Source: an uncultured Bacilli bacterium
GTDB lineage: Bacteria; Bacillota_I; Bacilli_A; RFN20; DUOF01
Assembly (NCBI GenBank): GCA_944363575.1
Contig: CALVUJ010000021.1
Span: forward strand, 18,226-82,225
Direction: 5' to 3'
DNA length: 64,000 nt
Shown here: one piece after another, positions 35,474-44,363 of the stretch
Numbering within the stretch: position 1 is the stretch's first letter
How the letters are laid out: each line of letters begins with the position of its first letter
Made by a program: the position numbers and the translations under genes
The notes under the pieces: generated by a model
Databases searched by the model: none
What the model saw: only the letters and a program-made list of their open reading frames with translations
What the model was told of the DNA's origin: nothing

Positions 35474-35890
35474 ATGGATAGTAAAATACTAGAAATAAAT
35501 AATTTATCTAAAAGTTTTTTTACTCTTGATGGTGAAATTGAAGTTTTAAAAGATATAGATATGAGTTTAAATGAAGGAGAGAAAATAGCTATCGTAGGTC
35601 CTAGTGGCTGTGGTAAATCGACTATTTTAAATTTGATAAGTGGGTTGATTAGTCCTAGTAAAGGTAATTTTGTTTTAAATGGTGATGTTGGGTACATGTT
35701 TCAAAAAGATAATTTACTAGAGTGGAGAACAATTTATAAAAATATTACAATAGGTTTAGAGATAAAGAAAAAACTTGATAAAGAACAAAAAGAAAAAATT
35801 GATGAGTTATTAAAGAAATATGATTTATATGAATTTAAAAATAGTTACCCATCAGAATTATCTGGTGGTATGAGGCAAAGAGTTGCTTGA
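35474..35890 (+). pseudogene. 5' part of NitT/TauT-type ABC ATPase, interrupted by the island
   Basis: Walker A GPSGCGKS, Q-loop MFQKD, ends at signature [11 protein letters not shown] at the attL junction. Confidence 0.95.
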
Positions 35891-35938
35891 ATATGCTTAA
35901 GACACTTAAGCAAATAGCGATAAAAGTTGCTTTATAAT
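35882..35938 (+). repeat. 57-bp att-arm motif, copy 1 (attL)
   Basis: GTTGCTTGAATATGCTTAAGACACTTAAGCAAATAGCGATAAAAGTTGCTTTATAAT; 50/57 identical to copy 3. Confidence 0.9.
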
Positions 35939-35954
35939 AAATAATATTAGTAGA

Positions 35955-35996
35955 AAGAAAAATAACTAGAGTTTCAAATTTCTAGTCTTTTTTTAA
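35955..35996. terminator. Hairpin/terminator downstream of the first cargo module
   Basis: ACTAGAGTTT-C-AAATTTCTAGT imperfect hairpin flanked by A and T runs. Confidence 0.5.
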
Positions 35997-36009
35997 TTTT
36001 ATTAATTAT

Positions 36010-36603
36010 TTAATTGAAATTAACTTTTTTCCCTTTTTTATACACTTCTTCTCCAATAAGGAATTTTTTATTATCTAAATCAATATTTAATCTCTTAACT
36101 TCAATATAATGCTTCTTTTCTCCTTTTCTTCCTCTATCAACTCTAATTAAATATTTTTGATATTCTTTTTCTGCTAAAAAATATAAGTTGGAAAATGACT
36201 TTATTTGCTCTGAATCTGCTATTGGCTCAATTCCTGTAAAAATGAAAGAACAAAAATCAAAAACCTTTTCCATTGCATTTCTTTTTGTGGTCTTAGATAT
36301 CTCATATACTACATATGGTTCAGGATACATTTCTTTTAGAGATTGTAGAATGTTTTCATATTTTTTACCGTTTCCTTCTTTTCTTAAGACTAATTCGGTT
36401 AATTCTAATTCAATTATTTAATAAGTAATCAATAGATACATTAAATAGTTTAGATATTTCCCTTAAATTCTCCGCATCTGGCAATCCTGAATCATTCTCC
36501 CATTTAGTTATTGCTTGTCTTGATACATTAATACTATTTTGCTAATTCTTCTTGCGAAAGATCAAATTCCTTTCTAATCTTTCTTATTTTTTTCAAGTTT
36601 CAT
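36010..36603 (-). pseudogene. XRE family HTH regulator pseudogene; the 106-aa ORF 36010-36330 is its C-terminal fragment
   Basis: Fragments MKLE / KIRKIRKEFDLSQEELA / INVSRQAITKWENDSGLPDAENLREISKLFNVSIDYLL / ELELTELVLRK...MYPEPY, joined by about 3 frameshifts. Confidence 0.85.
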
Positions 36604-36707
36604 AACCTTTCACCTCTTTGGCTATATTAAATCATTATTTCTATCTCCTTATCAGCAACTTTACTTTACATTTATGCTACTTATCGTGGCATTTTTAAAT
36701 ATTCTAA

Positions 36708-37435
36708 TTATTCTTTTATTTTCCAATATCCAGTTTTATCAGAACCAACTCTTTCTACAACATTCTCCATTTTTAATTTTCTTAAAACTTTATAGATTGT
36801 AGATTCTGTTCTATTAAGAATACTCGCAAGTTCAGAAGTTGTAATATTAGAATTACTTCTTATTAGAGATATTATCTTTTGTTCAGTAAGATTAAATTTT
36901 ACACCTGAATTTACAATGTTAACAAATAAAGTATCATCAGAAATAGAAAGTCCCTTATCTTTGAATAACATCATTAAATATTCAAATGATAGTTTCTTTT
37001 TATTTGTTTTAATATCTATTAATTTGATATTAGCATCTAATAATTTGGTATGTAACTTTTCTATTTGTTCTTCACTCATACTTCTACAAGTAGAGCCTAT
37101 ACGAATATAACAACCGTTAGAGCTTCTTCCGTATTTTTTAATATAGTAAAGAGCATTTCCTTTTTTCACATTAACATAGATGATTTGTTTGTTTTCAATG
37201 TACTTAGTACCTATTTCAATTAATTCTTGAGGATTAGGCAAAATAGCAGTAGTTATAATATCAGATATCTTCTTTAATGATTCATCTATATTGTCTATAC
37301 CTGTTATAGTTCCATCATCTTCTACCCTATATAAATAGTTCCATCAAAACTATTTAAAAATGCTACGATTTCTTTTTCTAAAGTATCGTTTATTTTCCTT
37401 TTTAATTCGATTGATTCACTTTCACTAAATTTCAT
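36708..37435 (-). pseudogene. AlbA/Schlafen-like DNA-binding protein with a C-terminal wHTH, frameshifted
   Basis: MKFSESESIELKRKINDTLEKEIVAFLNSFDGTIYIG, then a frameshift near 37329 into VEDDGTITGID...ILPNPQE; C-terminal HTH ending VERVGSDKTGYWKI; the usual central domain appears to be missing. Confidence 0.85.
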
Positions 37436-37593
37436 TAAATCATCTCATTGTTACACAATTAGTTTACCATATTTAATAAAATATTAAGCAAAATAATTAA
37501 GCAACTTTAATAATCTATGAAAATTAATTTTATACTATTACGTTTATTTTTAGCTTTTAGACTGCTAATGTAAAATTATAGTTGAAACAATTT

Positions 37594-37650
37594 GTCGGTT
37601 GGATGCCTTTATGGTACCAAGTTAAATGGTGTTGAATATTGCTTTATAAC
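37594..37650 (+). repeat. 57-bp att-arm motif, copy 2 (diverged)
   Basis: GTCGGTTGGATGCCTTTATGGTACCAAGTTAAATGGTGTTGAATATTGCTTTATAAC; ungapped 37/57 to copy 3 and 35/57 to copy 1. Confidence 0.75.
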
Positions 37651-42623: not shown

Positions 42624-42652
42624 AACTATTATAACCTATAAGCACTAAGTTC

Positions 42653-42784
42653 TTATAATTCATCTTCTAGTTCCCTTTCTAAAAAACAAATTATTTTATA
42701 TAGTTTTTTATTTATTATTTCTTTTAAATTATTTAATGATAAATTTTTAGTGTAAGAGTGAATCACATTGTACTTTATACCCAT
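42653..42784 (-). CDS. 43-aa ORF directly upstream of the recombinase
   Basis: GAGGATG RBS then MGIKYNVIHSYTKNLSLNNLKENNNKKLYKIICFLERELEDEL; below the ORF-track size cutoff. Confidence 0.5.
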   Translation of the reverse strand: MGIKYNVIHSYTKNLSLNNLKEIINKKLYKIICFLERELEDEL

Positions 42785-42976
42785 AAAAATCATCCTCATT
42801 AGATTATATTAAAAATTTTTTACTTCGTTACTTTTTGCACAAAAAAGCAAGAGCATACTCATCTAAGTATTATAACTAACTAAAATATTATCAACGTTTA
42901 CTAGGTGTTATTCCCTTATCAATTGTTTTAATATTTACTTCTTTAATTATTTCTTTAACAGCTTGTTTTGGTAAAA

Positions 42977-43570
42977 CTACACATTCTTCTTTTTTTTTAT
43001 ATATTGGCTTAAAATATTATCGTTCTTGTCTGGACTTTTATTAATTAAATATGTTTTCCCTTCTGTTTTACATAAAGCTAATTCGTATTGATTTGAATTA
43101 TCATAAACATATGCTCTATCTGCAACTTCAATTACTTTTTCCAATAACCCCATTGATTTATAATAACGAGAAACAATCTTCTCTTCAGGAACATCGTGCC
43201 CACCTTCTTTTACTCTTTTATGTACTCGCTCTATATTAATAGATGGATTTTTCGTTGTAACATAAAAGAGAATAACCTCGTAACCTTTTTGTTTAGCCAA
43301 TTTTAATAATTCTAAATTTCTATCTGTTGAAAGCACTGTCTCAAAAGAAAAATCTTCGCCTTTTTCTATCTTATCATGACGCATTTTTTCGGCATATTGT
43401 GCTGCTATTAAGTTTCTTTCGTTAGGATCTTTAATTACAGCAAGTGAATCTAATCTTGCTATATTATCAGCATTAATGAAAGGAACCTTAAGTTCATTTT
43501 CACTAACAATTTTAGCAAACAAAGTTGACTTTCCACTACCATTTGGCCCCGCAAAACAATAAACTTTCAT
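42977..43570 (-). CDS. Zeta-toxin-like P-loop ATPase/kinase (likely start ATG 43570)
   Basis: FAGPNGSGKST, FINAD, FSFETVLS, RVKEGGHDVPEEKIVSRY. Confidence 0.85.
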   Translation of the reverse strand: MKVYCFAGPNGSGKSTLFAKIVSENELKVPFINADNIARLDSLAVIKDPNERNLIAAQYAEKMRHDKIEKGEDFSFETVLSTDRNLELLKLAKQKGYEVILFYVTTKNPSINIERVHKRVKEGGHDVPEEKIVSRYYKSMGLLEKVIEVADRAYVYDNSNQYELALCKTEGKTYLINKSPDKNDNILSQYIKKKKNV

Positions 43571-43574
43571 CGTT

Positions 43575-43913
43575 TTATCTCCTCTTCTTATCATTAACAA
43601 AAGATTCTAAATCTTCATAGTCTATGTCTAACATTTTATTTATTATATCATCTGCTTCTTTAAAAGAAGGTATTTTTCCTTTACCTAACCCTTCTCCTTG
43701 AATTACATATTCAAGTTTTTTTAATGTTTCTTTATCATTATAAATAACCTTTTTAATAGCTAATGCAACATCCTTTTCTTCACTAGATTCATACATTTTT
43801 AACAAGTAATCTTTCTTTTCTTTTTTTACAAGCAAATATAATAAAGCTAAATTATATACCTTTTTATTTTTTTCTAATTCTCTCATCAAAATATCTATGT
43901 TCATCTTAATCAC
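43575..43913 (-). CDS. Small helical protein, candidate antitoxin partner of the zeta-like gene
   Basis: 112 aa ending 5 nt before the P-loop gene's likely start; role inferred from position. Confidence 0.55.
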   Translation of the reverse strand: MIKMNIDILMRELEKNKKVYNLALLYLLVKKEKKDYLLKMYESSEEKDVALAIKKVIYNDKETLKKLEYVIQGEGLGKGKIPSFKEADDIINKMLDIDYEDLESFVNDKKRR

Positions 43914-43996
43914 CTAAAGTTATTATATCATAATTTATATATCTATTAAAATATTAAATTATAGTCAATTAATTTAATTATGATTTATATATGATG

Positions 43997-44027
43997 GTGT
44001 CTTAAAAATAGTCATCCAGTTGCTTTA
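43997..44027 (+). other. attR of the LSR island
   Basis: GTGTCTTAAAAATAGTCATCCA-GT-TGCTTTA; the left arm is an inverted match (17/22) to the arm at attL. Confidence 0.85.
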
Positions 44028-44363
44028 ATCAGAACACTCGTTTTAAATCCCTCCATTTTATTACTAGATGAACCGTTTAGTGCTTTGGATGCTCAAACAA
44101 AAATAGCAGTAAATGAAGATGTTTATAATATTGTAAATAAAGAAAATAAAAGTGTTATTTTAGTTACTCATGATATTGCTGAAGCTATTGCTTTTTGTGA
44201 TAGAGTAATTGTTTTAACTAAAAGACCTACTTCTATTAAAAATATATATGAAATAAAGTTTGATGATTTAGAAAACAGAACACCTCTTAAAGCACGAAAG
44301 CACGTTTTATTTAAAGATTATTTCGATAAGATTTGGGGTGATTTAGATGAATTCAAAAAGTGA
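44019..44363 (+). pseudogene. 3' part of the interrupted ABC ATPase
   Basis: [28 protein letters not shown] (Walker B, D-loop), LVTHD H-loop; in frame with 35474-35883. Confidence 0.95.

Follow-up and report, generated by a model that had tools for sequence, protein, structure and literature searches.

A large serine recombinase-borne island that splits an ABC importer ATPase gene of gut Bacilli at its signature motif

Background

A 64,000-nt stretch of DNA from an uncultured Bacilli bacterium (assembly GCA_944363575.1, contig CALVUJ010000021.1, positions 18,226 to 82,225; hereafter the window, with positions counted from its first letter) contains the gene of an ATP-binding cassette (ABC) ATPase, which is interrupted in the codons of the ABC signature motif by 8.1 kb of DNA encoding a large serine recombinase (LSR). 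The locus raises the question of whether this DNA is a switch, through which the host regains a nutrient importer by excision, as a preliminary description of the window had proposed, or a mobile element that has the ATPase gene as its landing site. We conclude, with a probability of roughly 85%, that it is an integrated small island mobilized by its LSR and that it is primarily selfish rather than a switch under the control of the host. Below we describe the interrupted gene, the recurrence of the same insertion in relatives, the attachment sites and the island itself, and then weigh the competing explanations.

The interrupted ATPase gene and its natural empty site

The flanks of the island, 35474-35883 (410 nt) and 44021-44363 (343 nt), add up to 753 nt and when joined yield a single stop-free open reading frame (ORF) of 250 amino acids (aa); both the frame and the sum given in the preliminary description were thus verified. 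The restored protein matches the Pfam ABC_tran model (E = 7.7e-33) and displays a Walker A (GPSGCGKS), a signature (LSGGMRQR), a Walker B (LLLDEPF) and an H-loop (VTHD) motif, a complete set which is found together in a protein of about 250 aa only upon joining and in neither of the fragments. About 37 intact proteins of 249-250 aa align to it with 80-86% identity and 100% coverage. The best NCBIfam models for the restored ATPase are those of SaoA and of nitrate, sulfate and taurine-type ATPases, all with scores under the equivalog cut-offs, and some of its database homologues are named 'NitT/TauT family transport system ATP-binding protein'. The make-up of the operon, in which the ATPase is accompanied by a BPD_transp_1 permease and a binding protein of the NMT1/SsuA-like type (67 bits against SsuA_fam, which is under the cut-off), fits an importer of the NitT/TauT family, and both of these downstream genes are undamaged, as had been reported earlier. 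In its present state the reading frame ends with a TGA (35888-35890) that is supplied by the left end of the island directly after codon 138, leaving an N-terminal fragment without the Walker B, D-loop and H-loop. A TGA is encountered at the same point after codon 138 in nearly all left junctions (attL) of the relatives described below. The 3' fragment, for its part, offers no in-frame start codon close to the junction; the earliest is a TTG at 44085.

A natural empty site is provided by a syntenic contig of 89.6 kb from a sister species (L126), in which an uninterrupted ATPase gene (protein P0004) occupies the same place. Window positions 35401-35893 align to L126 7929-8420 and positions 44018-48392 to L126 8408-12795, so that the two alignments meet with a 13-nt overlap at L126 8408-8420; the nucleotide identity around this site is 76-79%. 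The shared gene order comprises an MFS transporter, alanine racemase and further genes, followed by the ATPase, the permease, the NMT1-type binding protein, P-II and DUF1538. Compared with their counterparts in the sister species, the ATPase halves show 85% and 83% identity, within the range of the intact neighboring genes (55-87%). Relaxed constraint is not apparent in the halves, which fits a fairly recent insertion or continued selection. Upstream of the ATPase the two genomes differ in that L126 (5942-7832, corresponding to window 35384-35473) has three extra minus-strand genes, encoding a 259-aa protein, a TetR-family protein and a 117-aa protein, between the 106-aa upstream gene and the ATPase.

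These comparisons also bear on whether the arrangement could be an artefact, either a chimeric assembly or a chance continuity of reading frame between two unrelated fragments. An independent assembly (L001, a 3.2-kb contig from Logan ERR4096492) spans the right junction at 99.97% identity, which rules out a chimeric assembly at this point. Intact homologues align with the joined ORF from end to end, synteny with L126 extends on both sides, and the same junction is seen again in 37 other loci; with nothing found in its favor, we regard an artefact as refuted. Among 5.8 billion proteins there was no intact ATPase allele of the same species, the closest intact ATPase being 86% identical, and exact-protein look-ups with the permease, the LSR and the 138-aa fragment returned only the contig itself and the island-bearing 3.2-kb L001.

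Recurrence of the insertion in a clade of recombinases

Relatives of the LSR were gathered without reference to ABC genes and amounted to 44 loci from GTDB genomes and 80 from metagenomes. We define as its clade the 62 loci with an LSR at least about 50% identical (50-75%) to that of the window. In 37 of these 62 the LSR accompanies an ATPase gene that is split at the very codon interrupted in the window, with the C-terminal part beginning at query residue 135 (QRVALIRTL...) or the N-terminal part stopping at about residue 138; both halves are visible in 14 loci. The other 25 are mostly contigs that end before any junction. Hence the question raised in the preliminary description, whether homologous LSRs also sit in ABC signature motifs, can be answered in the affirmative. 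Full-length ATPase ORFs are restored upon joining in at least 10 relatives, and the complete islands of 13 relatives measure 3.7-10.8 kb. Apart from the LSR, the cargo genes of the window's island are not common to the other islands, in which RhuM with Fic/DOC, Bro-N and an XRE-type regulator recur instead.

The pairwise identities of the LSRs and of the C-terminal halves of their host ATPases are uncorrelated (Mantel rho 0.17, p ~0.19): pairs of LSRs with identities of 97%, 92% and 90% occur in ATPases whose identity is only 58-61%. Since near-identical recombinases occupy such divergent ATPases, recent horizontal movement is indicated, and the island family is evidently both horizontally mobile and site-specific for one ATPase subfamily. 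All of the ATPase targets are of the type ...GGM(R/K)Q(R/K)VALIRTLA... and encoded beside a BPD_transp_1 permease, and wherever the flank is long enough an SsuA/NMT1-like binding-protein gene is present too; some of the target operons are ordered differently, with the binding-protein gene upstream instead of downstream. The preliminary description had considered the signature-coding sequence a portable target present in many ABC genes. This claim did not hold: the ATPase targets seen are confined to one subfamily of the NitT/TauT type, and the other ABC ATPase genes of the window (about 28-31% identity) are uninterrupted.

Only one clear alternative target was observed in the clade. In L065 (2491, 12577) a 64%-identical LSR with typical island ends lies in a cupin-domain gene, between HWHGAKKSS and WFSHI, at a site with partial likeness to the bacterial attachment site (attB). 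Five termite-gut contigs of 4.5-63 kb (L061, L062, L073, L082 and L088), whose LSRs are 60-64% identical, have an intact palindrome resembling the island attachment site (attP) just 3' of the LSR, with different cores; they may represent replicons that are not integrated, or else clade members that use other targets. LSRs of this clade are lacking in IMG/VR, where the nearest relatives are at most 42% identical. An attempt at dating an insertion was made with two related loci, L003 and L004, in which the islands are 98.7% identical and the left flanks 93%; as the nearest 2 kb of flank is itself 97.6-98.7% identical, this comparison was not decisive.

Attachment sites and the predicted crossover

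An 8-bp identity block, AGTTGCTT, is present at both junctions (35881-35888 and 44018-44025), and any cut within it generates the same empty site, ATGAGGCAAAGAGTTGCTTTAATCAGA, in agreement with the empty-site sequence proposed earlier. When the island ends are joined they form GTGTCTTAAAAATAGTCATCCA-GT-TGCTTGAATATGCTTAAGACAC, with a perfect 9-bp inverted repeat (GTGTCTTAA / TTAAGACAC). In this attP the spacing from GTGTCTT to AAGACAC is exactly 32 nt, and the center of the dyad falls between the G and the T.

For the family as a whole, we anchored the junctions by tblastn, obtaining 30 distinct right junctions (attR) and 18 distinct attL, which replaced an over-permissive census by fuzzy regular expressions. 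The resulting consensus is ..TATCtGGtGGtATGAgaCAAAGa-GT-TGCtTTAATtAGgACACT.. for attB and ..AgTGTCTTtAnnanATTCAAaGA-GT-TgttTGaATatngTaaAGACAC.. for attP; the arms of the latter mirror each other at 19 of 28 consensus positions and can be written as GTGTCTT-N6-ATTCAA-AGA-GT-TGC-TTGAAT-N6-AAGACAC. The attP of the window agrees with this consensus in both outer arms and in the right inner TTGAAT. In all 13 relatives with paired junctions, as well as in the window, GT is the sole dinucleotide that is identical between attL and attR. A GACAC motif lies 12 nt from the GT in attB and 17 nt from it in attP. In LSR systems the attP half-sites are about 5 bp longer than those of attB, with the motif bound by the zinc-ribbon domain shifted 5 bp outward in attP. 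As the dyad center, the shared GT and the 5-bp offset of GACAC converge, a crossover at the GT of the Val codon in R-V-A (35882-35883 / 44019-44020) is a well supported prediction. The corresponding attB of about 37 bp is formed by the codons of the signature-motif region of the NitT/TauT-type ATPase. A search of IMG/VR with the attP core TTCAARGAGTTGNTTGAAT returned 17 matches, all attributable to chance and without the GTGTCTT/AAGACAC arms or an LSR.

The recombinase, its small companion and the cargo

The intact LSR (Table 1) contains the Resolvase (E = 5.1e-18), Recombinase (6.2e-24) and Zn_ribbon_recom (1.7e-11) domains, which bears out the earlier view of the insert as an LSR-borne island; its C-terminus (residues 488-530) is weakly similar to DUF4368 (22.2 bits against a cut-off of 25, E = 1.7e-4). 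A block comprising V-G-I-Y-L-R-L-S and S-Q-S-R-F-S-R-D is common to all six aligned members of the clade, with R14-L15-S16 and S91-R92-F93-S94-R95 invariant; by likeness to other serine recombinases, this block is taken to hold the catalytic Ser and Arg. Among characterized recombinases it is most closely related to TndX, with a full-length identity of about 30%, and to TnpX; the best matches in the PDB are 3g13 and 2mhc.

About 30-160 nt upstream of the LSR there is a conserved ORF of about 40 aa, with a family core of YN(I/V)..L(K/T)..LKEIINKKLYKII.LLE. It precedes the LSR in nearly all loci of the clade and, in a more diverged form, in a sister clade. Its substitution rates at codon positions 1, 2 and 3 (0.31, 0.17 and 0.44) follow a coding-type pattern, and it has no match in Pfam. 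It is a candidate accessory or directionality (excision) factor. The 42-aa GirX protein, which is needed along with the serine recombinase GirC for the reconstitution of gerE in Bacillus cereus (PMC5595907), offers a precedent by analogy for a directionality factor as small as about 40 aa.

The G+C content of the island (26%) equals that of its flanks, and every one of its genes is antisense to the ATPase operon. Scans with Pfam, PHROGs and PADLOC detected no capsid, tail, terminase, lysis, relaxase or type IV secretion genes, and the PHROGs matches are confined to the integrase and to generic ATPase, kinase or regulator families. Judged by this gene content, the island is a small, LSR-borne element of neither phage nor conjugative type. 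The match of the kinase encoded near its right end to Zeta_toxin covers residues 67-172 only. The gene call for this kinase in L001 corresponds to 42977-43570, and the upstream ORF of 109-112 aa, a possible antitoxin, stops 4 nt before the ATG of that call while overlapping the longer ORF with a TTG start. Two other cargo genes are broken. One, encoding AlbA_2 and winged-helix domains, is read as a pseudogene from its separate pieces, of which the 37-aa piece (37322-37435) was assigned to the AlbA_2 N-terminus by eye only. The other, for a Cthe_2159-type lipoprotein, has an in-frame TGA where its paralogous repeats have GG(T/E), and is probably a pseudogene arising from a nonsense mutation. 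The RlmA-like protein scores 128.8 bits against the 303-bit cut-off of the G745 enzyme and is under all NCBIfam equivalog cut-offs; it likewise falls well short of the cut-offs for Erm(32), ChrB and MyrA, and no resistance function is assignable to it. Likewise, PADLOC gave only weak generic matches for the cargo, with no assignable defense system, and an Rfam scan of the window detected four tRNAs only, with no riboswitch upstream of the ATPase operon.

Table 1. Features of the interrupted operon, the island and its attachment sites (window positions)
Feature	Position	Strand	Remarks
ATPase 5' fragment	35474..35890	+	138 aa; Walker A, Q-loop, signature LSGGMRQR
ATPase 3' fragment	44018..44363	+	VALIRTL..., Walker B, D-loop, H-loop
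Permease gene, intact, BPD_transp_1	44347..45150	+	overlaps ATPase stop; E = 1.5e-24
Substrate-binding lipoprotein gene, intact, SsuA-like	45206..46240	+	NMT1_2 E = 2.6e-18, NMT1 E = 9.4e-16
attL	35864..35905	+	host B half-site GGTGGTATGAGGCAAAGA, GT 35882-35883, island P' arm TGCTTGAATATGCTTAAGACAC
attR	43997..44037	+	island P arm GTGTCTTAAAAATAGTCATCCA, GT 44019-44020, host B' half-site TGCTTTAATCAGAACAC
Predicted attB junction			GGTGGTATGAGGCAAAGAGTTGCTTTAATCAGAACAC
Predicted attP junction			GTGTCTTAAAAATAGTCATCCAGTTGCTTGAATATGCTTAAGACAC
Integrated island	35884..44020		8,137 bp, GT to GT
Hypothetical protein, 106 aa	36010..36330	-	without family match
AlbA_2 + winged-helix gene, broken	36708..37435	-	177-aa winged-helix piece 36708-37241, 37-aa piece 37322-37435
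Cthe_2159-type lipoprotein gene	37658..39361	-	in-frame TGA 37991-37993 in ...IVNG*TVF... repeat
RlmA-like 23S rRNA (guanine-N1) methyltransferase	39743..40579	-	Zn-ribbon_RlmA + methyltransferase domain
Large serine recombinase, 530 aa, intact	41031..42623	-	Resolvase 11-163, Recombinase 188-312, Zn_ribbon_recom 324-381
Conserved small ORF, ~40-48 aa	42653..42799	-	just upstream of LSR; core YNV..LKEIINKKLYKII..LE
Zeta-toxin-like P-loop kinase	42977..43600	-	Pfam Zeta_toxin 40.4 bits vs 22.3 cut-off
Possible antitoxin ORF, 109-112 aa	43575..43913	-	directly upstream of zeta-like gene; without family match

Relationship to known systems

Among the nearest known systems is gin, which interrupts gerE of B. 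cereus (PMC5595907). Like the present island it is a non-phage element that interrupts a coding sequence and carries a serine recombinase; its identity block is 9 bp long, against 8 bp here, and GirX, its partner protein of about 42 aa without a known motif, may have an equivalent in the conserved small ORF beside our LSR. The differences are that gin contains 31 genes with three recombinase genes, resides in a sporulation regulator and is excised specifically during sporulation, whereas the island is 8.1 kb long, has one LSR and resides in the ATPase of a nutrient importer. The likeness to GirC and GirX drawn here is one of description.

With lengths of tens of kb, the skin and SPbeta elements are prophages or the remnants of such. 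Like the island, skin (SpoIVCA, in sigK) and SPbeta (SprA/SprB, in spsM) are LSR-mediated insertions in coding sequences, where precise excision restores the gene (PMC4191935, PMC5499854, PMC5025042). Their excision is developmentally programmed in a terminal mother cell and depends on defined directionality factors, whereas the island has no phage genes or known programme.

TnpX and TndX are not known to need a separate directionality factor for excising their elements, and the transposon Tn4451 of the former is about 6 kb long. These clostridial elements, Tn4451/Tn4453 (TnpX) and Tn5397 (TndX), include the nearest characterized relatives of our LSR (PMC4430133; PDB 2mhc, 3g13), and the island resembles them in its recombinase lineage, its small size and the weakly DUF4368-like C-terminus of the LSR. 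It differs in having no TnpZ-like Mob/oriT gene and no resistance cassette identified as such. Furthermore, TndX and TnpX use many sites around a GA dinucleotide, whereas the clade of the window keeps to a specific site and has long attachment-site arms on either side of a core predicted to be GT. LSRs with DUF4368 are mostly 'multi-targeting' (PMC10083194), but the relaxed targeting of GA or TT dinucleotides that characterizes them is not seen here, as 37 of the 62 loci use one ATPase codon. The site-specific LSR clades of Durrant et al. 2022 (PMC10083194) follow the pattern seen here, in that diverged LSRs share one conserved intragenic attB and carry variable cargo; such a shared intragenic attB was described there for other genes, and ABC genes have 0 occurrences in the main text of that paper, its supplementary database aside. 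A search of the literature found no report of an LSR aimed at the ABC signature motif. Thus, the kind of element, an LSR-borne gene-intervening island, is already known, and its landing site in the ABC signature motif is previously undescribed.

Selfish element or host switch

We propose that the recombinase would join the near-palindromic attP of a circular island to the attB of about 37 bp in the signature codons of the ATPase, and that the crossover at the GT of the Val codon would produce an attL and an attR sharing AGTTGCTT. The near-invariance at the DNA level of these codons, within this ATPase subfamily of AT-rich gut Bacilli, would account for the choice of site, offering a landing pad across many hosts. 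Insertion places the TGA after codon 138 and 8.1 kb of antisense genes between the start of the operon and its permease and binding-protein genes. Because the ATPase is truncated at 138 aa and these antisense genes intervene, the importer is expected to be off, and transport very probably lost, for as long as the island stays integrated. Going by LSR chemistry, the same recombinase would excise the island conservatively and without a scar, restoring the 250-aa gene in a reaction for which the conserved ORF of about 40 aa might be required. At the level of sequence, therefore, the earlier claim that precise excision would rebuild a full-length ATPase is upheld. The element itself would be mainly selfish, kept in place by its zeta-toxin-like module. 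The preliminary description had gone further in stating that the importer is off until the island excises: the off state is plausible given the truncated ATPase, but nothing in the evidence shows excision to act as a regulated switch. Scans for promoters and terminators at both junctions yielded counts equal to the shuffled expectation in AT-rich DNA and were thus uninformative.

Several observations weigh against a purely selfish and currently mobile island. The left inner arm of the window's attP (GTCATCC) differs from the consensus ATTCAAAGA. The LSR is located 1.4 kb from attR and antisense to the ATPase, whereas in most relatives it abuts attR and is co-directional with the ATPase, only L092 sharing the polarity of the window. 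In L092 (10001-11597) the 3' end of the LSR lies about 110 bp from attL, and its frame is broken into ORFs of 107 aa and 453 aa by a frameshift or an assembly error. A relic attachment site at the 3' end of the window's LSR, which might account for the inverted polarity, was looked for and not found. The two broken cargo genes indicate that the island is not brand new, and the intact ATPase halves beside this decayed cargo could hint at selection for reversibility. No attP circle, attB product or same-species empty allele of the island is on record; the species itself is scarcely represented in databases, by two contigs. Finally, another ATPase could in principle energize the permease.

Some of these observations would be explained if the island were a stranded remnant of a single integration, which has lost the ability to excise and is carrying the transporter operon toward pseudogene status. 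The two decayed cargo genes, the atypical position and polarity of the LSR relative to the attachment sites, the P arm that is off consensus next to the core and the lack of a recorded excised form are all compatible with it. But the LSR ORF, the small ORF and the outer arms GTGTCTT / AAGACAC with their perfect 9-bp inverted repeat are intact, and the ATPase halves, the permease and the binding-protein gene are free of lesions and normally conserved, making this explanation unlikely, though it deserves to be taken seriously. In contrast, a degraded prophage or integrative conjugative element is very improbable. PHROGs does label the LSR as 'integrase', relatives carry the phage-common Bro-N and XRE-type genes, and some of the five termite-gut contigs with an LSR beside an attP-like palindrome may ride on larger replicons; yet the window's island has none of the phage or conjugation genes sought, the complete islands of the 13 relatives reach only 3.7-10.8 kb, and IMG/VR contains no member of the clade.

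The reading of the locus as a reversible switch exploited by the host posits that a signal, for example nutrient limitation or stress, induces excision, with the ORF of about 40 aa acting as a regulated directionality factor, and that the importer is thereby turned on, in the manner of skin/sigK, SPbeta/spsM or gin/gerE. In favor of this proposal, excision would be scarless and in frame, the ATPase halves have stayed intact at 85% and 83% identity to the sister species (neighbors 55-87%) while two cargo genes decayed, full-length ORFs can be restored in at least 10 relatives, and the conserved small ORF beside the LSR has a precedent in GirX (PMC5595907). It is also conceivable that sub-populations of these small-genome, non-sporulating gut Bacilli toggle the NitT/TauT importer by phase variation through LSR-mediated excision and reintegration, with the GirX-like ORF setting the rate of excision. 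Set against these ideas, neither an excision product nor a polymorphism is on record, the cargo differs between islands and is of the sort that mobile elements usually carry (zeta-like kinase, RhuM/Fic-DOC, Bro-N), and the islands have moved horizontally between ATPases of 58-61% identity, with the intact gene being the norm in relatives. In four relatives (L057, L091, L064 and L066) the same gene harbors a second or third element, so that several excisions would be needed for function; moreover, the known switches act in terminally differentiating cells, and no such cell type is evident here. We therefore judge both the signal-induced switch and phase variation to be distinctly unlikely. The selfish island is favored because of the toxin-like module, the variable and decayed cargo, the horizontal spread and the additional elements in the same gene.

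Further insertions in the same and similar targets

In L057 (7978-10807) and L091 (11145-13845) the ATPase gene with the signature-motif island has a second insert, of about 2.8 kb, near the H-loop (residues ~184-194), and that of L057 encodes a different serine recombinase of 513 aa and two small ORFs. In L064 (from 8434) and L066 (from 12622) the C-terminal half of the ATPase breaks after LLLDEPF and is followed by at least 8.9 kb with large ORFs resembling tail, tape-measure and peptidoglycan hydrolase proteins, assigned by eye, which suggests a prophage; two conspecific and near-identical contigs, L067 and L068, are without it. The permease downstream of the split ATPase can be struck as well: in L003 (13616-18634) it is split by an insert of about 5 kb with a third serine recombinase (23% identity), and the intact permease of L004 (12454-13230) represents the natural empty site of this insert.

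Outside the clade, a sister group of LSRs (L010-L033, L039, L041 and L043; 43-47% identical) ends about 60-80 bp before a junction whose host side codes for ...HGGxDPGA..., the conserved motif of N-acetylmuramoyl-L-alanine amidases (Amidase_3, E = 1.7e-15, L025 11594-12000). A more distant group (L112, L114, L116, L117 and L119-L125), about 30% identical to the LSR of the window and 85-100% identical among themselves, has one island end, ...TATATCAACCAGAAG, joined to two kinds of target: a site immediately past the H-loop codons in ATPase genes of the NitT/TauT type (EAISMSDRV; L112 and L117), and genes of ZIP-family transporters (PEGISMAVPM; Pfam Zip, E = 2.3e-9). This group looks like a multi-target recombinase that uses a short shared DNA motif. 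Catalytic motifs are near-invariant at the DNA level because of the codon bias of AT-rich genomes, and the idea that this LSR lineage has repeatedly re-targeted the DNA for invariant catalytic motifs, namely the ABC signature and the HGGxDPGA of Amidase_3, is better supported than that of a switch.

Implications

The clade described here provides LSRs with inferred attB/attP pairs, comprising about 30 natural variants in which the half-site motifs are clear and the core is predicted to be GT; such pairs are raw material for recombinase tools and for the study of how LSR specificity evolves, all the more as sister clades at 45% identity use a wholly different motif-coding target. For the annotation of metagenome-assembled genomes from the gut, the islands account for calls of 'truncated' ABC ATPases of 138 aa and 92 aa beside intact permease genes. 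In the ORF of about 40 aa, they offer a candidate for a small directionality factor of a new kind that is open to experiment. Regulated excision, if shown after all, would mean that gene switches based on LSRs reach nutrient uptake, beyond the genes of sporulation and competence. More generally, mobile elements of AT-rich gut Bacilli use the most conserved catalytic-motif codons of housekeeping genes as landing pads, and the gene of one importer ATPase can be struck by different elements at three places: in the signature motif, after the DEPF of Walker B and near the H-loop.

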